Assembly (NCBI GenBank): GCA_016215025.1
Contig: JACRMI010000010.1
Location: 12,331 to 76,330, forward strand
From: Chloroflexota bacterium
GTDB taxonomy: Bacteria; Chloroflexota; Anaerolineae; UBA4142
Reading direction: 5' to 3'
DNA: 64,000 bases
Shown in pieces: positions 3,573-48,828 of this stretch; position 1 is the stretch's first letter; every line of letters starts with the position of its first letter. Made by a program: the position numbers and the translations under genes. A model generated the notes under the pieces. That model did no database searches. It saw only the letters and a program-made list of their open reading frames with translations, and had not been told where the DNA came from.

Positions 3573-3641
3573 TGTCATTCTGAGCGCAGCGAAGAATCCC
3601 GTCCCGCGAAATGAGACCCTTCGCTTCGCTCAGGGTGACAC
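3573..3641. repeat. Hairpin repeat, GTCATTCTGAGCGCAGCGAAG...CTTCGCTTCGCTCAGGGTGACA family, copy 1
   Basis: Imperfect inverted repeat in the 3450-3654 intergenic gap. Related copies lie at 30925, 44614, 53284 and 53668. Confidence 0.85.
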
Positions 3642-10000: not shown

Positions 10001-11285
10001 CCTCGCCGAGCAATAGTCGTGCTTTGAGATGATTCGGGTTTACGTTGAGTGCGCTCTGCAATTGCGTGATCGTGCGTTCCAAATCGCCGCGCCGATAAAA
10101 TCCGTTCGCGCCTTGATATAGCGTGTCGGCAAGCGGCACGACGCGATCCAATTCGTCTTTGACTTTGTCCATCGGCTTACGCGCAACGACCCAGCGGCGC
10201 AGTAACTCGACAAAGAATCTGTAGCCGCCATCAGTTTGCTTTAGCATCTCCCATTCGACGAGCGTTTTCGGCGCAGGTTCCAATTCGCGGATTAAGATAC
10301 GGATACCTTGCGTTTGCAGAATCGAGATCAAGCGTTCGTCGGTGACGACGGTTTGCTCGTCTGTACCAGATGCTATTGCGGAGAAGATCACGCGCTCGGC
10401 GGGTGGTAAGCCATCCCAAATCCATTCAAATTGCGCTTCGCCTGCTTCCAACACTTTTAGAACAATCTCGTCTACGTCAACGGGTGTGATTTCAATTCGG
10501 GGTGGTTCGTTTACGTAGGCACGCTCGAAGAGAAGTTGGCAGGTCAGTTGTGTAAAGTATGGATGTCGCGCGCTCAAATCCAATACCCGTGTTACTGCAT
10601 CGTCGCTGAAATGCAATAGGTCATTGCGCTCGGCAGTGCGAACGAGCGTGTGTGCCGCTTCGTCGTCCAAAACTGAGACGCGCGCAAAGCGCGATGACTT
10701 GAATGCAGATTTGAACTCGATACCTAGCTCTTCAGCTTTGCGCCCAACTACAAACACGAAACCCAAACGAGGTTCGTTTATCATCAAATCGCGTAAGTAA
10801 GGAAAGAATGCGAACGCAGCAGAGGTTGGCGCAAGTTTTTCTTCTGTGCCGACGTTCAGCACGTCAAATTCGTCAAAGAGCAAAACCAAGCGATTATCGC
10901 TAAGCGCGGTGTAAACCGTCGGCAAAAACTTGTCGCGGAAGCCACGCCCTTCGTCGTCAAAATCAGTTCGCGTAGGTTGCGGCAACTTCAATTCTTGTGC
11001 AATCGTCGCAGCAAGTTCAAATGATACTTGCGCGAGCGATTTGCGGGCTCGATCCATCAGATCGAAATAGACAGAGATAAATGGAGGTGAGGGGAGTTGC
11101 GTGCGGAGATTGAGCAGAATTGACGTTTTGCCAATGCGTCGCTGACCAAAGAGGACAACCGAGTTTTGATCGGGTGACGACAGCGTGGTATGCACGAGGC
11201 GGAACACATCCTCGCGTCCAAAGAAACCGCGTGAATCGCCGAGTGCTTTGCCTGCAATGTACGGATTGCGGGGTGGAGTGGGCAT
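7083..11285 (-). CDS. Multidomain fusion: STAND ATPase - TPR repeats - FHA - FHA - ABC transporter ATPase - ABC-2 (ABCG-like) permease
   Basis: Single uninterrupted ORF. The likely start is the ATG at 11285 (MPTPPRNPYIAGK), with GGAG 6 nt upstream. Domain evidence: Walker A GQRRIGKTS and LLFDEFD (STAND ATPase); TPR-like helical repeats; two FHA signatures (LGRSPTNDIVI...ARLE...STNGLLLNG and IGRDPNTTIPL...ARVD...STNGTFVNG); ABC Walker A GASGSGKST, signature LSGGQLKRV, Walker B LLFLDEPTSGLD; six C-terminal TM helices. Confidence 0.8.
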   Translation of the reverse strand: MPTPPRNPYIAGKALGDSRGFFGREDVFRLVHTTLSSPDQNSVVLFGQRRIGKTSILLNLRTQLPSPPFISVYFDLMDRARKSLAQVSFELAATIAQELKLPQPTRTDFDDEGRGFRDKFLPTVYTALSDNRLVLLFDEFDVLNVGTEEKLAPTSAAFAFFPYLRDLMINEPRLGFVFVVGRKAEELGIEFKSAFKSSRFARVSVLDDEAAHTLVRTAERNDLLHFSDDAVTRVLDLSARHPYFTQLTCQLLFERAYVNEPPRIEITPVDVDEIVLKVLEAGEAQFEWIWDGLPPAERVIFSAIASGTDEQTVVTDERLISILQTQGIRILIRELEPAPKTLVEWEMLKQTDGGYRFFVELLRRWVVARKPMDKVKDELDRVVPLADTLYQGANGFYRRGDLERTITQLQSALNVNPNHLKARLLLGEVYRAQDRFDDAIREFETLYEIDREEGKQLLEETLFNRASSLEKGYQTDAALKDYSRILEISPGNMRANEKATLLQEELRSGQQIDSAYDLLYQERWDDAIELIKQLMHQDSENETLKDALTKAEQGREIAGRYVEGLEAFKQGQWAEAQRAFTDVIEIRPHYKDASELLTRATLILNPSTIRQHTAPQTTTSARKLVIHIAGKGPIEVPLDKLVYSLGRSPTNDIVINHLFVSANHARLERVGASYRIVDLVSTNGLLLNGQRVNNHLLNHNDVIRIGDAFGNSVSLTYVDTGAASTVAMMRMNLSAPTTLIGRDPNTTIPLNAPMVSWHHARVDFDGNMHTLTDLNSTNGTFVNGVCIQQHVLRPNDVVQIGPFQLTYDRAGLSQFNILGNVRFDALHLVRREPTKSGARLILNDVSLSIQPREFVALVGASGSGKSTLMSALSGFTRADGMVLINGTDFYHDYEIYRAMLGIVPQADIIYHGLTVESNLRYAARLRLPSDWLSAQIEQRIQEVMQVTEIEHQRHQLVGRLSGGQLKRVCIAIELLAAPLLLFLDEPTSGLDPSLEKRMMHMLQQLADRGHTIILVAHATQNIYRCNKVAFMANGRLVFYGPPDEALAFFRKSDFSDIYSELARLNDPNNPDQSPQYWEQQFKQSPYYQQFIAMPLQNVNLATHTPHAASPSRARGSPFWQWWVLSQRYFELIVRDRVTLFILLALMPLIAILVLAIANPNDLVGENVAVIAMMANYAKVGDAQKLLFIVSLVPVFLGIFASAYEIVREQHIYKRERMVNLGVLPYIFSKVGVLFFFSLIQSTFFLLVIGFRVTLPEKGVFLPAPLEIYITLVLATLASVGLGLLISSLARSEDVVIYAILLVLFIEILFAGAIFVLPKIAQPLSWITTTNWTMDALGSIIDMRYLQTLERVNGVPIPPTELSINYGHTVLHLVSRWFLLGGFALVAMAMTCLQQKLKDDL

Positions 11286-11402
11286 TGTCGCTCCAATTTT
11301 ACCGAGTCTAATACGAACTTGTGCAATGACTATTCTACCACGAATGACTTGCCAATACAAAAGACCTGACAGGTCTCCGAAGACCTGTCAGGTTTGTCCC
11401 TC

Positions 11403-11603
11403 TCAAAACGAAAACTTGGTCCAATCGGTGCCGCCGATGATTCCGCACGCGAACAGAATGAACAGAATCAGAAAAATGATTCCACAGCCACAGCCGCTGC
11501 ATCCGCGTCCGAATCCGAAATTCTTTTGCAGCCAGTCGAACAAGGTGTTGAGCAGGAACATTTCGAGCAGTCCTGCCAAACAGCCACGACGACCATCACC
11601 CAT
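11403..11603 (-). CDS. Cys/Gly-rich small membrane protein (66 aa), function unknown
   Basis: The ATG at 11603 has a perfect AGGAGG 8 nt upstream. Product: MGDGRRGCLAGLLEMFLLNTLFDWLQKNFGFGRGCSGCGCGIIFLILFILFACGIIGGTDWTKFSF, with a CxxCxC motif and a C-terminal TM helix. It lies immediately upstream of the FHA-ABC fusion gene. Confidence 0.5.
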   Translation of the reverse strand: MGDGRRGCLAGLLEMFLLNTLFDWLQKNFGFGRGCSGCGCGIIFLILFILFACGIIGGTDWTKFSF

Positions 11604-11708
11604 TTGAATACCTCCTGAGAATGAGACCGCCGACAATCGACCGCTGACCGCTGAATGAATGCGCGGTGGGCGGTCAGTTGTCGGCGGTCAATCGACTACA
11701 CCAAACGT

Positions 11709-13190
11709 TTACGGCGTTGCGACTCCGAACATGCCCATCGACCAAGCGGCGATGTTGACCACGGGATCGGGATATATCGCGAACGCAAGCACCAGCGCGC
11801 CAGTGATAACGAGCGAGAGCGTGACGAGCGGCGCAATGCGAATCGGCGTTGGGTCTTTCGGCGCTTCAAAGAATGCTTGGCGCACAACGCTGAAATAGTA
11901 GAAAACGGAGATGACGCTGTTGATGACGCCAATCGCGGCAAGTACAATGTAACCTTCGCGCAAGGCAGCGCCGAAAACAAAGAACTTGCCGATAAAGCCA
12001 GCCGTCGGCGGAATGCCGGCGAGCGAGAGGAAGAAGATGACGAACAGCGCAGCCACTAACGGAGCGCGTTTTACCAACCCGGCATACTCTGGAATCTCGA
12101 CGATGCCGGTTGTGTTTTCGATGGCGATCACGCAGATGAACGCGCCCAGGTTTGTAAACAGATAGGCAAAGAGATAGATCAAGATACCGTTCAAACCGGA
12201 GAAGGTAGGAGATGCTGTGAGGTTGACGGCGATCACACCGATGAGCATATAGCCCGCTTGCGCAATCGACGAGTAGGCGAGCATACGTTTGACGTTGGTT
12301 TGCTGCAACGCGGTGAGATTGCCGAGCGTCATCGTCAAAATCGAAATGACGACGAGCAGCGGAATCCACCCTTCTTTGTACGCAGGCAATGCGATGATGG
12401 CGAGTCGAAGCAGAACGGCAAAGCCCACCGCTTTCGGCCCGACCGAGAGGAAGGCCGTGACCGGCGTTGGCGCGCCTTCGTATGCGTCGGGAGCCCATTG
12501 ATGGAATGGGACGAGCGAAATCTTGAAACCCAGTCCAGCCAGCACGAGTGCTGTCGAGACCAGCCCGACCATGCGAACGGACGCATCGACAGTGTTGGTG
12601 AAGGTAGCGGCGATGTCGCTCAGGTTGAGCGAGCCACTGATGCCGTAGAGCAGCGAAAGACCGTAGAGCATCGTGGCGCTCGTAATCGCGCCGTAGAGGA
12701 AATACTTGATGGCTGACTCGTTCGATTTTTTATCGTCGCGCAAAAAGCCTGTGAGCAGATAGGACGTGTAACTCAAGAATTCAATCGAGAGATAGACCAT
12801 CAACAAGCTGCCAGAGCTGGCTGTCATCGTCATCGCCAGCACGGCGAACGTAAATATCGAGTAGAACTCGCCTTTGTAAGGTGTTCGATTTTTGAGATAA
12901 TCGATTGAGACCAACGTAAGGATGATGCCGGTGATGGCGGCAATCATCTTGAAGAACAGTGAGAACGTGTCGATGTAATACATTCCGGCGAATCGAGTTA
13001 CGTCCGATCCCCAAATGTAAAACGTTGCGCCAAGCGCGAGTGCGAATCCGAGAATCGTAATCCATGGCAAAATGCCCTGGCTTTTTTCGCGCCAGATCAC
13101 GTCGATCAGCAAAATGAGAATCCCGAAAATCGATAACACCAGTTCGGGTGAAATCAGAATCAGTGTTTGAGCATCAGGCATAATAGTCAC
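11709..13190 (-). CDS. nuoN: NADH-quinone oxidoreductase subunit N
   Basis: 493 aa, 14 TM, typical NuoN/ND2 antiporter-like fold; last gene of the nuo block. Confidence 0.9.
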   Translation of the reverse strand: MTIMPDAQTLILISPELVLSIFGILILLIDVIWREKSQGILPWITILGFALALGATFYIWGSDVTRFAGMYYIDTFSLFFKMIAAITGIILTLVSIDYLKNRTPYKGEFYSIFTFAVLAMTMTASSGSLLMVYLSIEFLSYTSYLLTGFLRDDKKSNESAIKYFLYGAITSATMLYGLSLLYGISGSLNLSDIAATFTNTVDASVRMVGLVSTALVLAGLGFKISLVPFHQWAPDAYEGAPTPVTAFLSVGPKAVGFAVLLRLAIIALPAYKEGWIPLLVVISILTMTLGNLTALQQTNVKRMLAYSSIAQAGYMLIGVIAVNLTASPTFSGLNGILIYLFAYLFTNLGAFICVIAIENTTGIVEIPEYAGLVKRAPLVAALFVIFFLSLAGIPPTAGFIGKFFVFGAALREGYIVLAAIGVINSVISVFYYFSVVRQAFFEAPKDPTPIRIAPLVTLSLVITGALVLAFAIYPDPVVNIAAWSMGMFGVATP

Positions 13191-13307
13191 CTAGTCAGTT
13201 AGTCGGATAGTTGGATAGTCAGGTAGTCAGATAGTTGGGTAGTCTCGTCGTGGAAAACGACTCATTGACTAGACAACTGCTCGACTAGGTGACTATCGAC
13301 TACTGGA
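13191..13307. repeat. Simple-repeat palindrome: TAGTC units on the left arm, GACTA units on the right arm
   Basis: TAGTCACCTAGTCAGTTAGTCGGATAGTTGGATAGTCAGGTAGTC...GACTAGACAACTGCTCGACTAGGTGACTATCGACTACTGGACTA fills the nuoM-nuoN gap. Confidence 0.85.
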
Positions 13308-14840
13308 CTACTTGACGAATGTACCAAGCAGCGCGACCGAAATCGTGTTGAGCGTATTCAGAATGACCGATGGCACGATGCCGATGAGAACCATCAAGAC
13401 CAGCAGCGGTGCCAGCGTTACAATCTCGTAAGTTTCCATGTCTTTCAAGCCTGCCCACTTTTCATTGAACGCGCCGAGGAGTACGTTCTGAATAACTTTC
13501 CACAACAGCAGGGCTGCGCCGAACACCACGCCGATTACGGCGAACGTCGCGATGACAGGCATAGTGGCGAACGAACCACGGAAGACCAGGAACTCGCTGA
13601 TAAACCCGGCGAGACCGGGCAAGCCGAGCGATGCAAACGAGGCGACGACCAGAATCGCGCCATAGACCGGAATCTTTGCGCCCAATCCGCCGAACTGTTT
13701 CAGCTCGCGGGTGTGCGTGCGTTCGTACAGCATACCGACGATAAAGAACAGCGCGCCCGTGATGACGCCGTGATTGAACATTTGGAGCGTTGCGCCGTTC
13801 AGCGCGATGCTGCGGTCTTCAAGCGTTGCACTGCCAAACGCGACAGCGGCTGCGATGCCGAGAATCACATAGCCCATGTGGTTCACGGACGAGTAAGCGA
13901 TCAACCGCTTAAAGTCCGTTTGCGCCATGGCGACGAGTGCGCCGTACACAATCGAGATGGCGGCGAGAACGGCGATAAGCGGCGCACTGGCTTGGAACAC
14001 TTGCGGGAAGATCGGGATCAACACGCGCACGATGCCGTACGTTCCGAGTTTTAGCAGAATGCCAGCCAGGATGACGGAACCCGCGGTCGGCGCGGCGGTA
14101 TGAGCATCAGGCAACCAAGTGTGGAACGGGAAGAGCGGAACCTTGATCGCAAAGGCGATAAAGATTGCCCAGAACGCAAGCGTCGCAAAACCGAAATCGT
14201 TGGCGAACGGTCGTCTGGCGGCAAGATCAATAATGTCGAATGTGCCGGGGGTGTTCGCGGTACTGGTGTTAATGTACATCGCGATGATCGCCAGAAGCAT
14301 AAAGACGGAACCGGCAAGCGTGTAGAGAAAGAACTTGATCGACGAGTACAGCGGGCGGTCTTCTTTGTGTCCCCAGATCGCGATGAGAAAGTACATTGGA
14401 ACCAAGCCCAGTTCCCAGAAAACGTAGAACAGGAAAAAGTCCAGCGAGATGAACACGCCGAGCATACCGACCTGAAGCAGCAGGAACATGAAAAAGAATT
14501 CGCGCACGCGTTCGTGAACCACCCGCGACGAGTAGTACAGCGAAAGCGTCGTGAGCAACGTTGTGAGCCAGATGAGTGGAATGCTCAAACCGTCCACGCC
14601 GACGTGATAGTTCACGTTGAGTGTCGTAATCCAGGGATACACTTCTTCAAGCTGCATCTTGGCCAGGTTGGGATTGAACATCCAGAACCATAGGTACGAT
14701 GCGAGCGCGAGTGGGATCAAGCTCCACACAATCGAAAAGCGCTCGATGAGTTTGTCATTTCCCTTGGGCAGCAACAGCACAATGATTGCGCCGATAAGGG
14801 GCAGTGCGACAAGAATCGACAAGTAAGGAATGGTCGTCAT
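13308..14840 (-). CDS. nuoM: NADH-quinone oxidoreductase subunit M
   Basis: NuoM/ND4 family. The start is trimmed to the ATG at 14840 (MTTIPYLSIL), which has GGAGGA 9 nt upstream. The longer ORF-track N-terminus is encoded by the adjacent hairpin. Confidence 0.9.
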   Translation of the reverse strand: MTTIPYLSILVALPLIGAIIVLLLPKGNDKLIERFSIVWSLIPLALASYLWFWMFNPNLAKMQLEEVYPWITTLNVNYHVGVDGLSIPLIWLTTLLTTLSLYYSSRVVHERVREFFFMFLLLQVGMLGVFISLDFFLFYVFWELGLVPMYFLIAIWGHKEDRPLYSSIKFFLYTLAGSVFMLLAIIAMYINTSTANTPGTFDIIDLAARRPFANDFGFATLAFWAIFIAFAIKVPLFPFHTWLPDAHTAAPTAGSVILAGILLKLGTYGIVRVLIPIFPQVFQASAPLIAVLAAISIVYGALVAMAQTDFKRLIAYSSVNHMGYVILGIAAAVAFGSATLEDRSIALNGATLQMFNHGVITGALFFIVGMLYERTHTRELKQFGGLGAKIPVYGAILVVASFASLGLPGLAGFISEFLVFRGSFATMPVIATFAVIGVVFGAALLLWKVIQNVLLGAFNEKWAGLKDMETYEIVTLAPLLVLMVLIGIVPSVILNTLNTISVALLGTFVK

Positions 14841-14857
14841 TGAAGAGTTCCTCCGAG

Positions 14858-14943
14858 CCTCACCTCTCACCCCTCAGTCCCCTCTCCCCTCTCCCGACTG
14901 AACTTCGTCGGGAGAGGGGAGAGGGTAAGGGGAGTGGGGTGAG
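14858..14943. repeat. Long polypyrimidine/polypurine hairpin (CCTCACCTCTCACCCCTCAGTCCCCTCTCCCCTCTCCCGAC / GTCGGGAGAGGGGAGAGGGTAAGGGGAGTGGGGTGAGG)
   Basis: Inverted repeat of about 38 bp per arm with a 9-nt loop, exactly in the nuoL-nuoM gap. Confidence 0.85.
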
Positions 14944-14944
14944 G

Positions 14945-17128
14945 TTATTTAATCAAGAATAGGAATGCAAAGAGTGCCACGCCGGCAATGGCGATGAGCA
15001 GATAATTTTGCACGCGTCCGGTTTGGATCAGCTTGATCGCATCGCCGACCATATCGGTAAAGATGCCGACCACGTTGACCAGTCCATCGACGATCGTATG
15101 GTCGATCCAGCCGCTGATGGCGCTGAACAATCGACCAATCGCAGCGGCGAGATTGACCAAGCCATCCACAATCGCTTTATCGAATGCAGCACTCACATCG
15201 GCGATCCAACCGATAAACCGGATAAACAAGCCGGGCTGAACGCGGACCGAATCGGCGGTACCGGTCTTGCCTTCGGATCCCGACTTTTGCGCGATGACGA
15301 GACCGTACAGTTCATCGGCATAATATTTGTTGCGCAAAACTTGCCAGATCAAAGGTATGCGGCTGAGCGGATCGCGTTGTCCATGCTTGAGCGGCTTCCA
15401 ACCGTAAATCAACCAGCCCAGCACGATACCCGCCACCGCGAGTCCGGTCGATGTGAGAGCAACAGTTGGATTGAATGGACCCGCTTCAAATTCCTCGCCC
15501 GCATGAGCAATGCCCATCCAGCCTTCGCCGACAAAGTGTTCAAAGAAGTTTATGCCGAGTGGCGTCGCGTTGATGAAACCGATTGTGGCGGCAAAAACGG
15601 CGAGTACGGCGAGAGGAGCCCACATCACGGTTGGCGATTCATGTGCGTGATCGTAGGCGTGATGATCGCGACCTTCGCCAAAGAAAGTAAGGAAGATTTG
15701 GCGTGTCATGTAGAATGCGGTGAAGAACGCTGCAATCGCCAGGAAGATAAACACGATGGTGCCGACCGTTTCGCCATGTTGCATTTGCTCAAAGGCATGC
15801 GCGATAATTTCGTCCTTGCTCCAGAACCCTGCGAGTGGTGGAATACCTGCAAGCGCCAGCGCGCCGATAATAAAGACGGTGGTCGTGATCGGCATTTTCT
15901 TGCGCAAGCCGCCCATGTTCATCATGTCGTTCGTGCCGACGCCATGAATGACCGAGCCAGCGCTCATGAACAACAATGCTTTGAAGAATGCGTGGGTGAT
16001 AAGATGGAACGCGCCTGCAACGTATGCGCCAATGCCGAGCGCCGCGACCATGAATCCCAACTGCGATACAGTCGAATAAGCGAGGACGCGTTTGATGTCG
16101 TCTTGCGCGACGCCGATGGTTCCGGCGAACAATGCGGTGAATGCGCCGACAATTGCGACTGCGGTCATTACAGGTCCGCCCGTTTCGGCGGCGGTGATGA
16201 ACAGGGGATACGTTCGCGCGATGAGGAACACGCCCGCCGCGACCATCGTCGCCGCGTGGATCAACGCGCTAACGGGGGTTGGACCTTCCATCGCGTCGGG
16301 CAACCAGACGTGCAATGGGAATTGCGCCGACTTGCCAATCGTGCCGCCGAGAATCAGCAGCGCGATCAACGTAACCCAGGGAAGACCGGGCAATGCTTGC
16401 GCTTCAGCGAGATGTTCGAGATTTTCTGCGGTGAAGATTTTTGGAAAGTTCAAGTCGCCGGATTGGATATAGAGGAAAACCAAGCCAACAAAGAAAATCG
16501 TATCGCCGACGCGTGTGGTGAGGAAGGCTTTGAGCGATGCAAACTTGGCGCGCACTGTTTGCGCATCATCGATGTGGTGTTCGTTTGGCTTGCGAATCGA
16601 CCAGAATCCGATGAGGAGGTACGAGCACAAGCCCATGATTTCCCAGAACAAGAAGAACTGGAACAAGTTCGACGAAATCACGAGACCCAACATGCCGCAC
16701 GCAAACAGCGAGATGTAGGCAAAGAAACGAGCATAGCGGGGATCATCGGTGACATGATGATGACCATGCTCGTCGGTGTGGCTGTGCTGCATGTAACCGA
16801 TGCTGTAGATAAAGATCATCAAGCAGACGGTGGTGACCATGAACAGCATCATCGCGACAATCGGATCGATCAAGACGCCGACTTGAAACTGAATCGCCCC
16901 AGTCGGCAACTGCAAGAACAGCGGCAGTGTTTGGAAGAACGGATGCTGGGCGAGTTCACCGCCTTTTGAAATCGCTTCAAACAGCACGAGGTAAGCGACG
17001 ACGCCTGCGGCAAAAATTCCCGCGACGGCGGTCAGCGCACTGACGCGGTTGTTGCGATTCAGAAAGAATACAATCAGCACAAACGCCAGCAGTGGAAAAA
17101 TGGGAATCAAAAATGCGTAATTGAACAT
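14945..17128 (-). CDS. nuoL: NADH-quinone oxidoreductase subunit L (long form with His-rich insertion)
   Basis: NuoL/ND5 family. The start is trimmed to MFNYAFLIPIF at 17128. It contains the insertion HSHTDEHGHHHVTDD. Confidence 0.9.
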   Translation of the reverse strand: MFNYAFLIPIFPLLAFVLIVFFLNRNNRVSALTAVAGIFAAGVVAYLVLFEAISKGGELAQHPFFQTLPLFLQLPTGAIQFQVGVLIDPIVAMMLFMVTTVCLMIFIYSIGYMQHSHTDEHGHHHVTDDPRYARFFAYISLFACGMLGLVISSNLFQFFLFWEIMGLCSYLLIGFWSIRKPNEHHIDDAQTVRAKFASLKAFLTTRVGDTIFFVGLVFLYIQSGDLNFPKIFTAENLEHLAEAQALPGLPWVTLIALLILGGTIGKSAQFPLHVWLPDAMEGPTPVSALIHAATMVAAGVFLIARTYPLFITAAETGGPVMTAVAIVGAFTALFAGTIGVAQDDIKRVLAYSTVSQLGFMVAALGIGAYVAGAFHLITHAFFKALLFMSAGSVIHGVGTNDMMNMGGLRKKMPITTTVFIIGALALAGIPPLAGFWSKDEIIAHAFEQMQHGETVGTIVFIFLAIAAFFTAFYMTRQIFLTFFGEGRDHHAYDHAHESPTVMWAPLAVLAVFAATIGFINATPLGINFFEHFVGEGWMGIAHAGEEFEAGPFNPTVALTSTGLAVAGIVLGWLIYGWKPLKHGQRDPLSRIPLIWQVLRNKYYADELYGLVIAQKSGSEGKTGTADSVRVQPGLFIRFIGWIADVSAAFDKAIVDGLVNLAAAIGRLFSAISGWIDHTIVDGLVNVVGIFTDMVGDAIKLIQTGRVQNYLLIAIAGVALFAFLFLIK

Positions 17129-17185
17129 TGAAACCTCAAATGTGCCAAACTTGGCCAATGGATGTGCGAAGTTCTGCACAGTCAT

Positions 17186-17250
17186 GCCAAATCGCCAAAT
17201 TTAATTCTTTTGGCGCGTTTGGCATGTTTGGCTTATTTGGCATATTTTGC
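17186..17250. repeat. Simple-repeat palindrome: GCCAAAT x2 / TTTGGC x4
   Basis: GCCAAATCGCCAAATTTAATTCTTTTGGCGCGTTTGGCATGTTTGGCTTATTTGGCAT in the nuoK-nuoL gap. Confidence 0.8.
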
Positions 17251-17251
17251 T

Positions 17252-17569
17252 CTACCATTTCATCAAATTGACTTCTTCGACATTTACCGTATCGCGTGAG
17301 CGGTAGATCGCAATGACGAGCGCGAGACCAATCGCAGCTTCGGCGGCAGCCAGCGTGATGACGAACAACGCAAAGACCATGCCCGCGAGTTCCATGCCTT
17401 TGGCCGGTGTAATATAGCGCCAGAATGCGACCAGGTTGATGTTTACGGCGTTCAGCATCAACTCGATGCCGATCAAGACGCCGATAGCGTTGCGTCGCGC
17501 CAATGCGCCAAACAATCCGATGCAGAACAAAGCGGCGGCAAGTATGAGATAAAATTCCAATGGAACCAT
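17252..17569 (-). CDS. nuoK: NADH-quinone oxidoreductase subunit K
   Basis: 105 aa, 3 TM, NuoK/ND4L. Confidence 0.9.
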
Positions 17570-17578
17570 ATTTACTCC

Positions 17579-17634
17579 AGTGAACAGTGAACAGTGAACA
17601 GTGGAGGTTCTTACTGATTACTGTTCACTGTTCG
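17579..17634. repeat. Simple-repeat palindrome: GTGAACAG x3 / CTGTTCAC x2
   Basis: AGTGAACAGTGAACAGTGAACAGTGG...TACTGTTCACTGTTCGC in the nuoJ-nuoK gap. The same motif family recurs at 27950 and inside hypF. Confidence 0.85.
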
Positions 17635-17644
17635 CTTCGCGTGA

Positions 17645-18157
17645 TTACTGATTTTCTTCCCGTGCGATCACAATTGCGCCGACAAGCGCGGCGAGCAACA
17701 AGAGTGAGATTGCTTCAAACGGCAAAAGGTACGTCGTGAGTAACTCGGTGCCAAGTTTGGGAATCATGTCGCCGACGGTGGTGCGGGATGCGTCGATGTG
17801 CCAGTTCGCGCCAAGTGAGACGGCGGCGAGGATTGTAAAGAGCAAGAGCGCGATACCGGCGGCGGCCATCCATTGGGTGTTATGCGCGCTATTGCGACCT
17901 TGCATCAAACCGCGCGTGAGCATTACGGCGAACAGAATCAGCACCGAGATCGCACCGACGTAGATGAGAATTTGCACGACGCCGACGAACTCGGCTTCGA
18001 GCATGAAATAAATGCCCGCAACGCCGAGGAATGCCAGAATCAAGCCGAGCGCTGCGCGTAATAAATTCTGCTGGCTCACTGCGATCAGCGCGCCCGCCAC
18101 GGCTAGCACGCCCATCACAAAGAAACCCAGATTCGATAAAAAGAGTTGAGTGGTCAT
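17645..18157 (-). CDS. nuoJ: NADH-quinone oxidoreductase subunit J
   Basis: 170 aa, NuoJ/ND6-like membrane protein. Confidence 0.85.
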   Translation of the reverse strand: MTTQLFLSNLGFFVMGVLAVAGALIAVSQQNLLRAALGLILAFLGVAGIYFMLEAEFVGVVQILIYVGAISVLILFAVMLTRGLMQGRNSAHNTQWMAAAGIALLLFTILAAVSLGANWHIDASRTTVGDMIPKLGTELLTTYLLPFEAISLLLLAALVGAIVIAREENQ

Positions 18158-18169
18158 GGCTATGCCTTG

Positions 18170-19282
18170 TTAATACTGAAATAACCCAAATTGTTTCAGA
18201 GCGGGAATTGCATACGTGACAAAGAGACTCGCGAGGATGATGTTGACCAGTCCGATGGGAACGAGCACTTTCCACGCAAAACCCATCAATTGATCGACAC
18301 GGAAGCGGGGCCACGTCATGCGAATCCACATGCCCAGGATGACGAGCGCGTACACTTTGATGATGAACCAGACGTAAGGCGGAAGGAATGGTCCTTGCCA
18401 TCCGCCCAAAAACAGCGTGACGGCGACACAGCAGACGAGGAAAAAGTTAAAATATTCGGCGACGTAGAAAAAGCCCCACTTGAGTCCGCTGTATTCGGTG
18501 TGGTATCCCGCAACAATTTCAGATTCAGCTTCGGGGAGATCGAACGGTGCGCGGACGACTTCCGCCAGCGCGCTGATATAGTAGATGACGAATGCAATCG
18601 GTCCGACCGGAATCGCGAAGATGTACCAACCCAAGCCACCGGCTCCACCTTGCGCTTCGACGATCTTGTTCAGCGACAGTGAGCCAGCCATTAGGGCGAT
18701 GACGGCAATCGTGAGGACTTGGGGGATTTCGTAACTGACAATTTGCGCCACCGCGCGCATACCGCCGAGAAGTGAGAACTTGTTGTTCGAGCCATAGCCC
18801 GCCATAAATGCGCCGATGGTTCCAATCGATGCGATGGCGACGATCCACAATAGTCCAATGTTCAAATCGACGGGAGCCATTCCTTTGCCCCAGGGAATCA
18901 CTGCGAAGGCGAGAACGGCGGGCGCAGCAGCAACCATCGGCGCAAGCAGATGCACCAAACGATCGGCATTCGTCGGAGTGATGTCTTCTTTGATGAACAT
19001 CTTGATCGTGTCGGCGACGGGTTGCAGCAAACCCCAAGGTCCAACGCGATTCGGACCGACGCGATCTTGAACGCGCGCCGCTACCTTACGCTCAAGCCAA
19101 ATCATGACGAGCACCATGAGCACTAGCCACAAAAGCAAAACGACGACGACGATGATCGTCATGATTGCGGCGACAATCGCGTTCTCTGCGTCCTTGACCA
19201 GATTGAGGCCGGACAAGAGCGCATGCAGTGAACCCGCAAGCCAATCGTACAAATTCGGGAACAGATTGTAGATGAATTCCAT
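18170..19282 (-). CDS. nuoH: NADH-quinone oxidoreductase subunit H
   Basis: NuoH/ND1 family. The start is trimmed to the ATG at 19282 (MEFIYNLF), so that the TAGTC palindrome lies between the genes. Confidence 0.9.
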   Translation of the reverse strand: MEFIYNLFPNLYDWLAGSLHALLSGLNLVKDAENAIVAAIMTIIVVVVLLLWLVLMVLVMIWLERKVAARVQDRVGPNRVGPWGLLQPVADTIKMFIKEDITPTNADRLVHLLAPMVAAAPAVLAFAVIPWGKGMAPVDLNIGLLWIVAIASIGTIGAFMAGYGSNNKFSLLGGMRAVAQIVSYEIPQVLTIAVIALMAGSLSLNKIVEAQGGAGGLGWYIFAIPVGPIAFVIYYISALAEVVRAPFDLPEAESEIVAGYHTEYSGLKWGFFYVAEYFNFFLVCCVAVTLFLGGWQGPFLPPYVWFIIKVYALVILGMWIRMTWPRFRVDQLMGFAWKVLVPIGLVNIILASLFVTYAIPALKQFGLFQY

Positions 19283-19285
19283 ATC

Positions 19286-19350
19286 TAGTCCTGTAATCAA
19301 ATAGTCATCTAGTCGGATAGCCAAGCGAGGATCAAGTGACTATCAGACAA
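19286..19350. repeat. Simple-repeat palindrome, TAGTC family
   Basis: CTAGTCCTGTAATCAAATAGTCATCTAGTCGGATAG...GTGACTATCAGAC. The 18-mer CAAATAGTCATCTAGTCG recurs at 48705. Confidence 0.8.
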
Positions 19351-19367
19351 CGCGACCATACGATCAA

Positions 19368-19787
19368 TTAAACCCACTTTAGCTGATCCTTGCGCCAAGC
19401 ATAGACCAATGCCACGACGAGGATGGCGAGGAAAATGACCATCTCTACAAGCGCGAAAATTCCGAGCGCATTGTAAGCGACGGCCCATGGGTACAGGAAA
19501 ATGACTTCGACGTCAAAGACGACGAAGATCAACGCGTAGATGTAATACTGGACGCGGAACCTGACCCAGACTTGTTGTGCTGCTTCGGGAAAATCTTCAA
19601 ACTCGAGGCCACATTCATACGTGGAGAGTTTGGATTTGTTCGGCTTTTTCGGATGGACGAGCCATGACATGAATAAGCCGATTGGGGGAAATAGTGCTGC
19701 AACCAGAGCAAAGAGGGCAACTATGCCATATCGATCAAGCACGTTGGCTACTCCTTTGTAGAAAGATTGGGCTTGAGTCGAACACAA
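19368..19787 (-). CDS. nuoA: NADH-quinone oxidoreductase subunit A
   Basis: NuoA/ND3 family (ECGLEFEDF...). It is followed directly by nuoH, with no nuoB-G in between. Confidence 0.85.
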   Translation of the reverse strand: MCSTQAQSFYKGVANVLDRYGIVALFALVAALFPPIGLFMSWLVHPKKPNKSKLSTYECGLEFEDFPEAAQQVWVRFRVQYYIYALIFVVFDVEVIFLYPWAVAYNALGIFALVEMVIFLAILVVALVYAWRKDQLKWV

Positions 19788-19935
19788 ACATTATATCACA
19801 CTCGTTGTGTTTTGACAAAATTTTCGCGCCCGAAGCATTATATCCATTCCGATTTGAAATGCAAGAGCAACGCGCTTTGGAAAACATGCGTCCTCCGAAA
19901 TTTCATCTAGCGCCGCGCTGTGTTATAATCGGCGC

Positions 19936-20952
19936 GTGAATACTCAACCAAGCATCATCGACCAACCCGACGCGCGCACGTGGAACGATTTTATCGCATC
20001 GCAACGCGGTCACATTTTGCAATCCGCCGAGTGGGGCGAACTCAAATCTCAATTCGGCTGGAGCGTCCAGCGATTCATTTTGACGCGCGCTGAAAAAATG
20101 ATGGCGGGCGCGCAAATTCTTTTCCGATCTATGCCGCTTGGCTTGCGCTTGGCATACATCCCGCGCGGTCCCGTGGTCGATTTCAACGATAATAACACCG
20201 TCAGTCAACTTTTCGATGCGACCTTCCGAATTGCAAAATCGCGCGGCGCATTCGCGTTGAAACTCGAACCGAATGTGCTTGCGACGACCAAATTGCAACT
20301 TGAAACGTGCAACCTGCAACCTGCTTCGAGTATCCAACCGCGTACGACTATTCATCTCGATCTCACGCGCAACCTTGATACGATTCTCGCGCAGATGAAA
20401 CCCAAGTGGCGCTACAACATTCGACTCGCGGATCGCAAAGGCATTGTCGTGCGCCCAGGCAGCCGCGATGACGTATCGACTTTTTATCACTTGATGCAAA
20501 TCACGAGCGAACGTGACAAGTTTGCTGTCCACTCGATGGATTATTATAGCACGGCCTTTGATCTTTTTACCGCACGCGACTATGCGCGCCTTTTCGTCGC
20601 CGAATACGAGCATGAGCCACTCGCAATGATTTTTGTGACGGCGTTCGGCGGCGAAGCCATTTATCTTTACGGCGCATCGTCGAACGCGCATCGCGAGCGT
20701 ATGCCCAATCATGCCTTGCATTGGTCGGCGATTCAATGGGCGAAGGAGCGTGGCTGTGTGCGTTATGACTTGTGGGGGCTGGGTGCAACCACAGACGCAG
20801 ATGCGCAAACGGCACATGGTCTCTATCAATTCAAGCAGGGCTTTGGGGGAGAGATGGTGCAATACATAGGCGGATATGATGCAGTTTTTTCACGTTGGCG
20901 ATATAAAGTATATCGCCAAGCACTATCATGGCGACGTGGAATGTTAGGATAA
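19936..20952 (+). CDS. FemAB-family peptidoglycan aminoacyl (interpeptide bridge) transferase
   Basis: 338 aa, FemAB/GNAT-like signature region (KPKWRYNIR...AIYLYGASS...HWSAIQWAKERG). GTG start. A TATAAT lies 7 nt upstream, so the mRNA may be leaderless. Confidence 0.7.
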   Translation: MNTQPSIIDQPDARTWNDFIASQRGHILQSAEWGELKSQFGWSVQRFILTRAEKMMAGAQILFRSMPLGLRLAYIPRGPVVDFNDNNTVSQLFDATFRIAKSRGAFALKLEPNVLATTKLQLETCNLQPASSIQPRTTIHLDLTRNLDTILAQMKPKWRYNIRLADRKGIVVRPGSRDDVSTFYHLMQITSERDKFAVHSMDYYSTAFDLFTARDYARLFVAEYEHEPLAMIFVTAFGGEAIYLYGASSNAHRERMPNHALHWSAIQWAKERGCVRYDLWGLGATTDADAQTAHGLYQFKQGFGGEMVQYIGGYDAVFSRWRYKVYRQALSWRRGMLG

Positions 20953-25736: not shown

Positions 25737-27068
25737 ATGGATTTACTCTACACCTTGATTGGTCGATCCGCAGATGTGGCTGCAATTCATAAACTGGCTG
25801 GACGCGGGCACTCGGTTTCCGTCGTCGGCGTCAGTAATATCGGCAAGTCGGCTTTGCTGCGCCGCTTGTGTCAGAATGCGCCGAATGGAACCTTCGTCTA
25901 TGTCGATTGCAACCAGATGGGCGAGCGTTCGGCGCGCGCGTTCTTTACTTCGATCTGGTTTGCGATTTTGCAACTCATTCAAGCGCGTTCGTTATCGAAT
26001 GAGATCAAAGCGCGCGCGGCTGCACTCTACGATGAAATCATTCATGCAAGCAACACCGAATTTGTCACGCCGCAATTCGACGAGGGTTTTACGCTCGCGA
26101 TGGCAAACTTACCGCGTCCACTCGTCCTCTGCTTTGATGAATTTGACGAAGCCTACAAGCACCTCGAGCCGCAAACGTTTCTCAACTTGCGCGCGCTCAA
26201 AGATCGCTATGGCGAGGCGCTTGCCTATGTTGTGGCGACGGAACGCGAAATCACGCGGCTGCCTGCTACGCGCGAGCAAGGTGAATTTCTCGAATTGATT
26301 GCATCACACGTTCACTTTATGCATTTTATGGAACCTGCCGATACGCGTGTTTTTTGCAATCAATTTGCCGCCCAAGAAGGCGTGACGTTTAGCGAATCTG
26401 ATCTCGCATTTATTATCGACAATGCCGATGGTCATCCCGGTTTGGCGCAAGCTGTGTGTTGCGCGCTCGGTGCGGTGACGGGCGCGCCCAAGCGCGACAA
26501 AGACCAAGACCGCGTCATACACCAGATGGTGCAGTTGAATTTGACGACGGATTCCAACGTGCGTTCCGAGTGTGAAAAGGTATGGGATGATCTCGATCAA
26601 GATGAGCGCGAGGCGCTTCAAGTGTTGCACCCGACGAGCGATCAAGCCCAAATTGCGCAACGCAGTCTGCGCCACAAGTTTATCATTCGCGAGAGCAAAG
26701 ACGAAGTGATTATTTTCTCACGGCTCTTTGCCGAATTTATCCGCCAGCAAAAAATCAAACAGCAGCCCAGCGCCGGCGGCGTGTTTATCGACGTTGGCTC
26801 TGAGCGGGTTTGGGTCGATGGCAAAGAGATTGAAGGTCTGACGGATTTGGAATATCGCTTGCTGTTGTTTTTCTACGGTCGCATCGATCACGTTTGCGAC
26901 AAGTACAAAATCGTCGAATCGGTGTGGGGCGAAGATTACATTGACAAAGTCGACGACGCGCGCATAGAAAAACTCGTCAGCCGTGTGCGCCAAAAAATCG
27001 AACCGGACGCGACCAAGCCAAGATACTTGATTAGTGTGCGAGGACGGGGATACAAACTCGTCCGATAG
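25737..27068 (+). CDS. STAND/AAA-type ATPase (paralog 3) fused to a C-terminal OmpR/PhoB-type winged-helix DNA-binding domain
   Basis: Walker A GVSNIGKS, Walker B LVLCFDEFDE. The C-terminus (VWVDGKEIEGLTDLEYRLLLFF...ISVRGRGYKLV) matches the trans_reg_C signature. Confidence 0.75.
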   Translation: MDLLYTLIGRSADVAAIHKLAGRGHSVSVVGVSNIGKSALLRRLCQNAPNGTFVYVDCNQMGERSARAFFTSIWFAILQLIQARSLSNEIKARAAALYDEIIHASNTEFVTPQFDEGFTLAMANLPRPLVLCFDEFDEAYKHLEPQTFLNLRALKDRYGEALAYVVATEREITRLPATREQGEFLELIASHVHFMHFMEPADTRVFCNQFAAQEGVTFSESDLAFIIDNADGHPGLAQAVCCALGAVTGAPKRDKDQDRVIHQMVQLNLTTDSNVRSECEKVWDDLDQDEREALQVLHPTSDQAQIAQRSLRHKFIIRESKDEVIIFSRLFAEFIRQQKIKQQPSAGGVFIDVGSERVWVDGKEIEGLTDLEYRLLLFFYGRIDHVCDKYKIVESVWGEDYIDKVDDARIEKLVSRVRQKIEPDATKPRYLISVRGRGYKLVR

Positions 27069-27140
27069 TCTTGAAGTCAAATAGTCTTGTGATCAATTCG
27101 TCCGGCTATGAGACTATTTGATTATCAGACTACGAGACTG
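27062..27140. repeat. Simple-repeat palindrome, TAGTCT/AGACTA variant
   Basis: TAGTCTTGAAGTCAAATAGTCTTG...GAGACTATTTGATTATCAGACTACGAGACT. Confidence 0.75.
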
Positions 27141-27941: not shown

Positions 27942-27949
27942 ACGCAGTA

Positions 27950-28017
27950 AGCAGTCAACAGTCAACAGTGAACAGTTTTCGGTTTTCTACTGATTACTGT
28001 TCACTGATTACTGTTTA
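27950..28017. repeat. Simple-repeat palindrome (CAGTCAACAG / CTGTTCACTG family)
   Basis: AGTCAACAGTCAACAGTGAACAG...TACTGTTCACTGATTACTGTTTAC after the pspA stop. Confidence 0.8.
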
Positions 28018-28034
28018 CTTTCTAGGATGTTCCT

Positions 28035-30924: not shown

Positions 30925-30987
30925 TTGTCATTTCGAGCGAAGCGAGAAATCTGATTTCTCACTTGCTTCGCTCGTTCGAAATGACAT
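30925..30987. repeat. Hairpin repeat, TGTCATTTCGAGCGAAGCGAGAAATC...GATTTCTCACTTGCTTCGCTCGTTCGAAATGACA (family copy 2)
   Basis: Near-perfect palindrome between the vWA gene and the flotillin gene. Confidence 0.85.
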
Positions 30988-31013
30988 GGTGTATGTGTTG
31001 GTAAAGGAGGCGT

Positions 31014-32989: not shown

Positions 32990-33044
32990 GAGTATGGGGG
33001 TGAGGGAGTGAATTACTCTTCCTCACTCCCATACTCCCATACTC
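32990..33044. repeat. Palindromic element GAGTATGGGGGTGAGGGAGTG...CTCACTCCCATACTCCCATACTC
   Basis: Inverted repeat immediately after the flotillin stop. Confidence 0.8.
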
Positions 33045-34877: not shown

Positions 34878-34902
34878 AGGGTTTGCCAATTGACGCCATT
34901 CG

Positions 34903-34930
34903 TTGAAACGAACGGCTGTTGAGTACGAAA
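34903..34930. repeat. 28-bp direct repeat ACGCCATTCGTTGAAACGAACGGCTGT (copy 1; extended imperfect hairpin to about 34975)
   Basis: An identical 28-mer occurs again at 35541. Confidence 0.85.
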
Positions 34931-35514: not shown

Positions 35515-35540
35515 TGTGCGAAACGATGCTAGTCCAATAA

Positions 35541-35568
35541 ACGCCATTCGTTGAAACGAACGGCTGTC
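35541..35568. repeat. 28-bp direct repeat ACGCCATTCGTTGAAACGAACGGCTGT (copy 2)
   Basis: Identical to the copy at 34903. Confidence 0.85.
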
Positions 35569-35599
35569 GATCTCGAAGTCGTCATGTGGAGGTCTTTTT

Positions 35600-39421: not shown

Positions 39422-41128
39422 ATGCCCAAGATTGCAATCGATCCGGTTACCAGAATCGAAGGACACTTGCGCATCGAAGTTCAAATCGATGGTGGCAAAG
39501 TCACCGATGCTTGGAGTTCCAGCACGATGTTTCGCGGCATGGAAATCATTCTCAAGGGGCGCGACCCGCGCGATGCCTGGGTCTTTACGCAGCGCATCTG
39601 CGGCGTTTGCACGACAGTTCATGCCGCCACGTCGGTGCGTGCCGTCGAAAACGCGCTCGGTATTACGATTCCGCTCAACGCGCAAATCATCCGCAACATC
39701 ATCGAAGGTATTCAGTTCGTCCAAGATCACGTCATTCATTTTTATCATCTGCACGCGCTCGACTGGGTTGACATCGTCAGCGCGTTGAAAGCCGATCCGG
39801 CCGGTACTTCAAAACTCGCGCAGTCGATTTCCGATTGGCACAATTCCTCCGAATCGTATTTCAAAGGCGTGCAAAACAAGATCAAGGCGTTTGTCGATTC
39901 CGGCCAGCTGGGTCCATTCGCGAATGGATACTGGGGACATCCCGCATACAAGTTGCCGCCCGAAGCGAACTTGATGGCGGTCGCGCACTATCTCGAAGCG
40001 CTCGATTGGCAGCGTGAAGTCATTCGCGTTCATGCGATTCTCGGCGCAAAGAATCCGCACTTGCAGACGTACCTCGTCGGCGGCATGTCGGTTCCCATCG
40101 ATCCAAACAGTCAGAACGCGATCAACGCCGACAAACTTGCGCTCATCAAAGGATGGCTCGCGCAAGCGCGTCAGTTTGTCGAAAAAGTTTACATTCCCGA
40201 TTTGCTCGCCGTCGCGCCGTTCTATAAAGACTGGGCGGGCTATGGCGCAGGACTAGGGAATTTCCTCGCGTACGGTGAGTTCCCGCAGGCACCTGATAAT
40301 TCGGACTTGTTTCTCAAGCGCGGTGTTATCTTGGGCAAAGACCTCACCAAAGTTCTACCCATGGATCACCAAAAAGTCGCCGAGTACGTCGCGCACTCGT
40401 GGTACGATTACGGCGCTGGCGATGCCAAAGCGCTGCATCCCTGGGACGGCGAAACGCAGCCGCATTACACCGGACCCAAGCCACCCTATGAATCGATGGT
40501 GGGCGACAATCCGAAATATTCCTGGCTCAAAGCGCCGCGCTACGACGGCAACGCAATGGAAGTCGGTCCGCTCGCGCGTATGCTCGTGTCATACGCTTCC
40601 GGCGTCAAGCCCGTCGTCGATACGGTCAATCTCGTTTTGAAAACGCTCGGCGTTGGTGCGGAAGCATTGTTCTCGACCCTCGGTCGAACGGCAGCACGCG
40701 GAGTTGAAACACTCGTGCTAGCGCAGCAACTTGAGGGCTGGGTCGATGCATTAGCAGCGAATATCAAGCGCGGCGATTTAAAAGTTCACAATGGCGAAAA
40801 ATGGGACCCCAGCAAGTGGCCCGCCGAAGCAAAGGGCTGGGGTTTTCTCGAAGCGCCACGCGGCGCACTGGGACACTGGGTCAGCATCAAGAACGGCGCG
40901 ATCAACAATTATCAATGCGTCGTGCCATCGACGTGGAACGGCTCGCCGCGCGATGCGAACGGCAAACGCGGCGCGTGGGAAGAAGCGCTCATCGGAACGC
41001 CGGTCGCCAATGTCGATCAACCGGTCGAAATCTTGCGCACCGTTCACTCGTTCGATCCGTGTATGGCGTGTTCGGTGCATGTCGTCGATACAAGCGGGCG
41101 CGAGTTGACGAAGGTGCGGGTAATGTGA
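39422..41128 (+). CDS. hyaB: [NiFe] uptake hydrogenase large subunit
   Basis: N-terminal RICGVC and C-terminal DPCMACSVH nickel-binding motifs. Confidence 0.92.
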   Translation: MPKIAIDPVTRIEGHLRIEVQIDGGKVTDAWSSSTMFRGMEIILKGRDPRDAWVFTQRICGVCTTVHAATSVRAVENALGITIPLNAQIIRNIIEGIQFVQDHVIHFYHLHALDWVDIVSALKADPAGTSKLAQSISDWHNSSESYFKGVQNKIKAFVDSGQLGPFANGYWGHPAYKLPPEANLMAVAHYLEALDWQREVIRVHAILGAKNPHLQTYLVGGMSVPIDPNSQNAINADKLALIKGWLAQARQFVEKVYIPDLLAVAPFYKDWAGYGAGLGNFLAYGEFPQAPDNSDLFLKRGVILGKDLTKVLPMDHQKVAEYVAHSWYDYGAGDAKALHPWDGETQPHYTGPKPPYESMVGDNPKYSWLKAPRYDGNAMEVGPLARMLVSYASGVKPVVDTVNLVLKTLGVGAEALFSTLGRTAARGVETLVLAQQLEGWVDALAANIKRGDLKVHNGEKWDPSKWPAEAKGWGFLEAPRGALGHWVSIKNGAINNYQCVVPSTWNGSPRDANGKRGAWEEALIGTPVANVDQPVEILRTVHSFDPCMACSVHVVDTSGRELTKVRVM

Positions 41129-41205: not shown

Positions 41206-41216
41206 TTGGAGGAATT

Positions 41217-48825: not shown

Positions 48826-48828
48826 AAA

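Follow-up and report, generated by a model that had tools for sequence, protein, structure and literature searches.

In a 64-kb window of an Anaerolineae (Chloroflexota) genome, contig JACRMI010000010.1, the gaps between the genes of a nuo operon are occupied by long imperfect hairpins, each arm of which is a tandem array of one short motif. Elements of the same kind lie in and after gene clusters for hydrogenase and formate dehydrogenase, and downstream of several other genes. By the window we mean this whole 64-kb stretch, which is the part of the genome that we analyzed. On balance we consider it somewhat probable that the elements are simple-repeat palindromes resembling the short tandemly repeated repetitive (STRR) hairpins of cyanobacteria, that they evolve in place by slippage, and that they are tolerated between a stop codon and the ribosome-binding site that follows it.

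Hairpins with tandem-repeat arms in the nuo operon and beyond

Gene identities were assigned by Pfam, and gene starts were corrected with the gene calls of Logan assemblies. The nuo genes occupy the minus strand from 19742 to 11709 in the order nuoA-H-J-K-L-M-N. This cluster comprises the membrane-arm genes only (nuoA, H, J, K, L, M, and N); nuoH directly follows nuoA, and nuoB–G and nuoI lie outside the 11709–19742 operon. One strong promoter-like site (19818–19790) and one terminator-like site (11393–11364) bracket the operon. The window sequence is reproducible because three Logan assemblies match it at 100% identity over ~30 kb; their contigs were retrieved by exact-protein look-up with NuoK, NuoJ, FdnI, and HyaC. 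They derive from three runs of a single study, which includes SRR12113394, SRR12113397, and SRR12113407. We rejected an assembly artefact as the source of the elements, since these three independent assemblies are 100% identical over the element regions.

A first-pass annotation, made from the sequence alone, had proposed that every gap of the nuo operon holds a different hairpin of this type. Five of the six junctions do carry one; the exception, nuoH/J, is 12 nt long and contains no element. The elements of the cluster are listed here with their predicted folds, scored as z-values against shuffled sequence using the corrected gene boundaries:

11625–11689, minus strand: hairpin between nuoN and a 67-residue open reading frame (ORF), GACCGCC-type 7-nt units as arms; folded over 11615–11700, -46.5 kcal/mol, z -6.8
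13182–13310, minus strand: nuoM/N element, TAGTC-N3 units (period 8) against GACTA-N3 units; folded over 13180–13307, -39.8 kcal/mol, z -3.9
14856–14944, minus strand: nuoL/M element, pyrimidine arm (CCTCACC/CTCTCCC heptamers) against purine arm (GGGAGAG/GGTGAGG); folded over 14850–14944, -70.2 kcal/mol, z -5.9
17133–17250, minus strand: nuoK/L element, GCCAAA-N3 units (period 9) against TTTGGC units; folded over 17129–17251, -42.8 kcal/mol, z -4.3
17576–17640, minus strand: nuoJ/K element, CAGTGAA/CAGTAAT heptamers against three copies of CTGTTCA; folded over 17570–17644, -28.2 kcal/mol, z -4.8
19294–19366, minus strand: nuoA/H element, short hairpin of TAGTC against GACTA with the weakest fold listed here; folded over 19283–19367, -25.7 kcal/mol, z -2.6

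In the nuoM/N element the stop codon TAG of nuoM forms part of the first unit, the Shine–Dalgarno sequence (SD) AGGTGA lies beyond the stem on its 3′ side, and one arm shows higher-order periods of 16 and 24 nt in Tandem Repeats Finder (TRF). The purine arm of the nuoL/M element (14858–14898; GGGAGAGGGGAGAGGGGACTGAGGGG in minus-strand sense) matches the canonical G-quadruplex motif of four tracts and has mirror symmetry; judged from this sequence, it could have triplex potential able to compete with the hairpin. The ORF of ~67 residues that follows nuoN (11403–11606, minus strand) lies between nuoN and the operon terminator, has an SD of its own (MGDGRRGCLAGLLEMFLL...GGTDWTKFSF), and looks hydrophobic and cysteine-rich.

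Pfam also identified in the window a hyaA/B/C [NiFe]-hydrogenase cluster, fdnG/H/I-like formate dehydrogenase genes, hypA and hypF, a Band-7 flotillin gene, and pspA. That the same style of element recurs around hya, fdn, hypF, pspA, and flotillin genes was borne out: besides the gap after nuoN, eight more 3′ or intercistronic gaps contain one.

27061–27135, plus strand: TAGTC/GACTA hairpin beginning at the TAG stop of the gene at 25737–27068
27945–28022, plus strand: pspA 3′ element, CAGTCAA/CAGTGAA heptamers against ACTGATT/ACTGTTC (site 27942, z -6.6)
32990–33044, plus strand: 3′ element of the flotillin (Band 7) gene, purine arm against 2.5 copies of ACTCCCAT (site 32988, z -7.0)
41121–41208, plus strand: hyaB/hyaC element, GTGAC-N2 heptamers against GTCAC-N2, with the hyaB stop TGA in the first unit (site 41129, z -3.4)
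47816–47887, plus strand: fdnG/fdnH element, AGTTCC units against GGAACT-N2-4 units (site 47813, z -4.8)
48702–48826, plus strand: fdnH/fdnI element, TAGTC-N3 against GACTA-N3, the first unit being the fdnH stop TAG (site 48713, z -4.7)
49530–49578, plus strand: near-perfect palindrome 3′ of fdnI, about two CGTGAWG units per arm (site 49522, z -8.7)
53237–53400, plus strand: hypF 3′ element, GATTT-N2 heptamers against AAATC-N2, with the hypF stop within a unit (site 53251, z -4.9)

All the elements that the annotation had listed thus exist and fold as long imperfect hairpins with arms of tandem short motifs. When complementarity was checked by folding, the arms paired, and in most elements the folds went far beyond those of shuffled sequence, mostly at z -3.9 to -8.7, with nuoA/H and hyaB/C the weaker cases. 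As a control, 250 random 90-nt coding windows gave a mean z of -0.12, with none below -4. The sites it gave are real, but their coordinates were slightly off: longest-ORF starts enter the arrays, so that the starts of nuoH, nuoL, and nuoM had been over-called (corrected starts 19282, 17128, and ~14843, respectively, from the Logan gene calls). Annotators of such regions should also expect stop codons within repeat units and in-frame arrays that inflate proteins such as HypF.

Every arm showed a period of 7, 8, or 9 nt by TRF, with 2.5–7 copies, and element lengths ranged from 50 to 130 nt. The unit has a fixed core of 4–6 nt followed by 2–3 variable bases (TAGTC-N3, CAGT-N3, GCCAAA-N3, GTCAC-N2, GGAACT-N2-4, GATTT-N2), and at least seven unrelated cores occur within 64 kb. 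The elements are not each unique to their gap, as first proposed. The TAGTC family is present at four loci (13183–13310, 19294–19366, 27061–27135, and 48702–48826), CAGT-type units at three (nuoJ/K, the pspA 3′ end, and within hypF), and purine/pyrimidine arms at two (nuoL/M and the flotillin 3′ end). In the window the pattern TAGTCN2-3TAGTC has 12 matches against 0.03 expected, and three CAGT motifs at 7–8-nt spacing likewise have 12, against 0 expected. An Rfam scan of the whole window at the gathering threshold returned 0 matches.

The cores are far more regular than the bases between them. Among 43 TAGTC units, 33 of 34 spacings were exactly 8 nt, and the core held 1.2–1.7 bits per position compared to 0.02–0.29 bits in the spacer, figures to be read with the selection of the units being partly circular. 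When the four TAGTC elements were aligned, the AGTC/GACT cores alone were invariant; loops, termini, and spacers differed. In the predicted folds core pairs with core and the spacers form small internal loops. Arms shifted by one period pair about equally well, making the hairpins register-tolerant. For the same reason a test of whether the arms are strict mirror copies was dropped: with shifted registers pairing equally well, inverted duplication and independent arrays are inseparable. Longer identities are few: an identical 18-mer, CAGTGAACAGTAATCAGT, at nuoJ/K and the pspA 3′ end, and an identical 13-mer, TAGTCATCTAGTC, at nuoA/H and fdnH/I. Perfect (100%) adjacent copies were found by TRF for CAGTGAA (3.7 copies), CAATTAC (3.7), and ACTCCCAT (2.5), and point to recent slippage. 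Seeding of arrays by an SD was also considered, as GGAGGAACTC is found both in the nuoM SD and in the array of fdnG/H; with two exact copies only, which could be chance, we gave up this idea.

The placement of the elements follows the same rule throughout. They begin at, or a few bases from, the upstream stop codon. For nuoM, the gene at 25737–27068, and fdnH, the first TAGTC unit begins with the TAG stop, and the stops of hypF, hyaB, and nuoJ likewise fall inside a unit. At the other end, the 3′ base of the stem lies 9–17 nt upstream of the next start codon, and the SD is mostly just outside the main stem. Measured through the base of the stem, the distance from stop to start is ~12–22 nt, close to that of junctions free of hairpins (12 nt at nuoH/J, and 15 nt at nuoL/M of the close relative L001, introduced below). 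Of the 31 co-directional gaps in the window 13 are occupied, and of the four divergent gaps none, the latter being a sample too small to be significant. Intrinsic terminators were rejected, as no stem is followed by a T-run; in addition, none of 13 terminator-like matches in 11000–20500 coincides with an element.

Arrays of the same kind also occur inside one gene. By TRF, in-frame tandem arrays of 7–9-mers lie on the plus strand within the hypF coding sequence (50776–53250), between 51786 and 52924:

51786–51813, plus strand: ATCAGCT array
51990–52078, plus strand: CACAGAGAA together with ACTGAAC/GTTCAC
52855–52924, plus strand: AATCAGT together with CAATTAC

Compared with the structure in PDB entry 3vth, they coincide with insertions of 7 and ~39 residues. 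A 26-residue stretch derived from an array, NVRSATENTEITEKTNQLNTENCSLN, is absent from nine HypF relatives of 66–80% identity. In these relatives other loops hold peptides typical of translated heptamers, for example NSKFVIQNSKFKIQ and YEFEIRNS. In-frame arrays lengthen surface loops of HypF, and relatives carry other heptamer-derived peptides in those loops. The arrays within hypF therefore suggest that the generating process acts on DNA generally and that it is left to selection where its products are retained. In line with this is the distribution of the elements in 2.27 Mb of nuo neighborhoods, where ORFs cover 90.6% of the sequence: 32 of the 35 elements detected there lie in the 9.4% outside ORFs.

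Turnover between relatives and other repeats of the window

The nearest relatives of NuoL and HypF are found in Anaerolineae/Chloroflexota metagenome-assembled genomes (MAGs). The best for NuoL, at 84% identity, is Anaerolineae bacterium H63_652, which we call L001; a metagenome scan with NuoL found no relative above 54% identity. The first-pass annotation had suggested that orthologous operons be compared for presence or absence of the elements, and the comparison with L001 yielded one clean filled/empty pair. This pair is nuoL/M, where 89 nt that L001 lacks lie between the TAA stop and CGGAGGAACTCTTCAATG of the window; the flanks are otherwise identical. No target-site duplication is present at this pair (flanks ATAA and CGGAGG).

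At four other junctions both genomes carry units. In nuoM/N, L001 keeps a single unit on each side, TAGTC-ATTGC-GACTAGCTGAC, and the window has ~97 more bases of units between the retained TAGTC and GACTA. In nuoJ/K, L001 has a one-armed array of the GAACACT type, and the window a GAACAGT-type array with a complementary arm; the two differ by one substitution that is carried in every unit. Both genomes have hairpins with a CCAA core in nuoK/L, with period 9 in the window and period 8 in L001 (CCAATG/CATTGG). In nuoA/H the units of the two genomes are altogether different. Read from these sequences, the comparison is one of whole-unit expansion and contraction together with concerted change in place, and not of insertion of a preformed mobile element.

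That the elements are MITE- or REP-like (miniature inverted-repeat transposable element; repetitive extragenic palindrome) mobile sequences, each family with its own repeat unit and inserted as a preformed palindrome, had been among the first suggestions for their nature. The recurrence of the TAGTC family at four sites and of CAGT at three, the 18-mer CAGTGAACAGTAATCAGT and the 13-mer TAGTCATCTAGTC shared by two loci each, and the clean presence/absence at nuoL/M would all suit it, as would the fact that a different, truly dispersed palindrome family exists in the window and has inserted into the loop of one hairpin. Set against this, the filled/empty pair lacks a target-site duplication; what the members of a family have in common is the core and its fixed period, with differing termini, loops, and spacers; and lengths run from 50 to 130 nt. 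At nuoM/N the difference from L001 is whole units between retained ends, and the orthologous nuoJ/K arrays, differing by one substitution per unit, point to concerted evolution in place. We therefore regard insertion as preformed mobile elements as quite improbable, and the MITE-like suggestion is not supported for these hairpins.

The dispersed family just mentioned has the head GTCATTYYGAGCGRAGCGA. This head has 7 matches in the window against 0.27 expected, each inside a long hairpin, and the palindromes that carry it (3574–3639, 30927–30990, 44615–44694, 53286–53365, and 53670–53688) are unrelated to the repeat-array hairpins. One copy (~53285–53365) is nested in the loop of the hypF 3′ hairpin. 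The palindrome was absent from all 169 loci that we fetched, and a literature search for its sequence gave no match. The family looks more like true REP or MITE elements than the repeat-array hairpins do.

Other repeats lie nearby. A 35-nt tandem repeat, CAAGTCAGCGTAGCACAAGCGGCTCGCTCGCGACT, occupies the divergent intergenic region at 61389–61630 in 6.9 copies of 92% identity and is highly self-complementary. A segment of ~30 nt, GCCATTCGTTGAAACGAACGGCTGT, occurs in two neighboring intergenic gaps (34895–34925 and 35540–35570) with a hairpin around each copy, and may be a third small dispersed repeat. Two gene models also deserve mention. The fdnG-like gene has an in-frame TGA at 45374–45376 (context EHQARI*HSSTVA..FGRGAMTN); this is the selenocysteine position expected for formate dehydrogenase alpha subunits, and 44807–47812 is probably one gene. 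Antisense to nuoL, a 653-residue open frame runs along 15008–16969 (plus strand); it is probably a by-product of codon or composition bias and not a gene.

Origin and possible roles of the hairpins

How could such elements arise within an operon? We infer that slippage and template switching generate them and that folding makes them tolerable. An element would then consist of two inverted arrays of one 7–9-nt unit with a fixed core and a variable spacer. It would be seeded by a short inverted repeat already present at the site, for instance TAGTC...GACTA next to a stop codon. Replication slippage would expand and contract both arms by whole units, in place and at the DNA level, and fold-back or template switching would probably keep the two arms alike. 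Selection on the flanking genes would confine the element to the stretch that begins at the stop codon upstream and ends shortly ahead of the next ribosome-binding site. With the insert folding on itself, stop and start would stay effectively close, and the element could thus be tolerated in tightly packed operons. Within coding sequence, stop-free in-frame units from the same process would survive in protein loops such as those of HypF. A secondary benefit is conceivable, in that the hairpins might block 3′ exonucleases and so protect upstream cistrons.

Several observations weigh against this explanation. The cores are kept while the spacers are near random, although neutral slippage followed by decay should erode both equally; this hints at a constraint on the core beyond what slippage provides, with the caveat that the units were chosen in a partly circular way. 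Of five TAG stops, three continue with TC and begin a TAGTC array; independent seeding of each array from local sequence would make this unlikely. L001 shows no visible seed for the nuoL/M element. Most intergenic arrays in the window are two-armed, which calls for a mechanism of inverted duplication or for selection for folding. The three Logan assemblies, all identical, show no difference in unit number, and the turnover comparison has a single close relative, L001, as its basis. This explanation does not account for the conservation of cores next to freely varying spacers, the repeated use of TAG-TC stops, or the presence of two arms in nearly all arrays.

A rival reading is that the hairpins are selected RNA elements. 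The elements could be intercistronic stem-loops that block 3′–5′ exonucleases and stabilize the upstream cistrons, or sites of processing by RNase III. REP hairpins are known protectors of mRNA 3′ ends, as in malE-malF of E. coli. The elements here lie inside a single predicted transcription unit, lack T-runs, and occupy co-directional gaps (13 of 31) and no divergent one (0 of 4); as noted, the latter count is not significant. Their stems of 20–35 bp, with predicted energies of -25 to -70 kcal/mol, would make effective barriers or RNase III substrates. Paired cores are conserved and the spacers in internal loops vary, the position of the nuoK/L hairpin is kept in L001 despite its changed sequence, and roles in transcript stability or coupling have been proposed for the STRR hairpins of cyanobacteria (PMC2670836). 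Strand preference lends no support: four of the six nuo elements fold better in the antisense strand, and of 19 co-directional elements taken from a range of loci, 7 were more stable as sense and 11 as antisense (Wilcoxon p = 0.68). L001 dispenses with the elements of nuoL/M and nuoM/N, its nuoJ/K array has one arm only, and arrays also occur within the hypF coding sequence, where such a role is inapplicable. We would call selected RNA elements a tentative alternative, clearly less probable than in-place slippage; a role in mRNA protection or processing is possible but unsupported.

The cores themselves could be the functional part. Arrays such as (UAGUCNNN)n or (TAGTCNNN)n might be sites for a DNA- or RNA-binding factor, or might adopt non-B DNA (cruciform, G-quadruplex, or triplex) that acts on replication, supercoiling, or the nucleoid. 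In favor of such readings, the core is conserved beside a random spacer, with 33 of 34 spacings at exactly 8 nt; in the fetched loci, heptamers containing CAGT/ACTG turn up again across unrelated phyla, as do TAACTGA heptamers in Beggiatoaceae and cyanobacteria (PMC4679880). The nuoL/M purine arm fits a G-quadruplex motif and has mirror symmetry, and the plus strand folds better in ~10 of 14 elements whatever the direction of the genes. Yet at least seven unrelated cores in 64 kb would require many factors, no candidate protein was identified, close relatives have different units in one and the same junction, and the core-information analysis is partly circular. Factor binding or non-B DNA seems to us very improbable.

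A broader form of functional constraint joins these ideas. Selection might maintain the fixed 4–6-nt cores at their strict 7–8-nt period, either as a register-tolerant intercistronic stem that juxtaposes stop and start and shields cistron 3′ ends or as core-binding sites; the elements would then be a general operon-punctuation device that recurs independently in nuo operons of Chloroflexota, Acidobacteriota, Verrucomicrobiota, Planctomycetota, and cyanobacteria. We think this unlikely.

Relation to known repeat hairpins

Among the fetched loci, similar arrays are present in nuo-operon gaps of two other Anaerolineae (L014 and L009), a Verrucomicrobiota MAG (L027, with AATTGGT and GAACGTC hairpins), a Planctomycetaceae (L066) and an Acidobacteriaceae member (L071), and the unassigned metagenome contigs L142, L145, L152, and L153. 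The window is the denser, with 10 detected in its 64 kb and 25 in 2.2 Mb elsewhere. Shorter versions are seen in a relative whose HypF is 79% identical. Four of these contigs, unrelated to one another, each have a different heptamer array after a gene ending ...GSVDIVLGEVDR (L142, 2921–3081; L145, 2825–2985; L153, 3052–3201; L027, 1026–1136); hairpins are formed by two of the arrays, and the other two have a single arm. Such a pattern suggests a hotspot at this junction that recurs from phylum to phylum.

The closest known system is that of the STRR sequences, tandem repeats of 7 bp in filamentous cyanobacteria that can fold into hairpins in the hupS-hupL gap (Anabaena, Nostoc, and Lyngbya) and at other places; their function is unknown, transcript stability or translational coupling having been proposed (PMC2670836). 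Like them, the elements here have tandem units of ~7 bp in several unit families, dispersed within the genome (TAGTC at 4 and CAGT at 3 loci in 64 kb), mainly noncoding, hairpin-forming, and situated between co-transcribed genes including those of hydrogenase. Unlike them, periods of 8 and 9 are as common here as 7, the units are core plus variable spacer and not near-perfect heptamers, and nearly all arrays are paired and inverted. The host is an anaerolinean and not a heterocyst-forming or filamentous cyanobacterium; it lies outside the family as originally defined, and the elements are STRR-like and not STRR in the strict sense. One STRR unit, reported by Mazel and colleagues in 1990, is said to be CAACAGT. 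The two to three copies of CAGTCAA at 27952–27969 are a cyclic permutation of that unit, which we take to be STRR3; most units here differ from it. A literature search for the STRR unit strings gave unrelated primer matches only.

Xanthomonas genomes carry 70–75 convergent pairs of GGGAATC heptamers each, capable of forming stem-loops (Rehm et al. 2015, PMC4692102). These are mostly intergenic, near the end of the upstream ORF, and mostly between co-directional genes; their length and sequence vary between close relatives while their position is kept, and polymerase slippage was proposed for the excess of heptamers in bacteria (PMC4692102). The elements in the window share the placement in gaps, the inverted pairs, the kept position, and, in the nuoL/M purine arm, the potential for G-quadruplexes. 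They differ in having at least seven cores where Xanthomonas has one dominant unit per genome, and most of the units here are not G-rich, in contrast to the emphasis on G-quadruplexes there.

The TAACTGA direct repeats of Beggiatoaceae, cyanobacteria, and some Bacteroidetes are almost all one-armed, with one inverted case in 170 sets (MacGregor 2015, PMC4679880), whereas an inverted, hairpin-forming arrangement is the rule here. The two share intergenic arrays beside start codons, units with stop codons in the forward orientation, and ACTG/CAGT content. In both, copies within ORFs survive in the stop-free orientation only, as SVIS-type peptides (ENQYSVISNQ in HypF). Within the Chloroflexota, Chloroflexus aurantiacus has (GATAGRA)n satellites (PMC6749651). 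With REP/BIME (bacterial interspersed mosaic element) sequences and MITEs the elements have in common that they are short extragenic palindromes in operon gaps, and if they have any RNA role at all it would work as that of REP does. Unlike these families they have arms that are internally tandem-repetitive, no GTAG/CGTC head, and no target-site duplication (nuoL/M versus L001); no common head or consensus was found among the folded and aligned elements, which vary in length from 50 to 130 nt, nor a full-length consensus among the four TAGTC elements.

Elements of this kind have already been described, as STRR hairpins in cyanobacteria and as heptamer pairs in Xanthomonas, and what is new is their membership in the Chloroflexota. 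The range of STRR-type hairpins extends from filamentous cyanobacteria and Xanthomonas to the Anaerolineae, and the comparable nuo-gap arrays of other phyla among the fetched loci indicate a phenomenon broader than the literature suggests. The pairs formed by the window and L001 (filled and empty, many units and one, two arms and one) offer a compact system for the study of palindrome growth. They are also relevant to whether conservation of the core reflects function, a question that has accompanied the STRR sequences since 1990.

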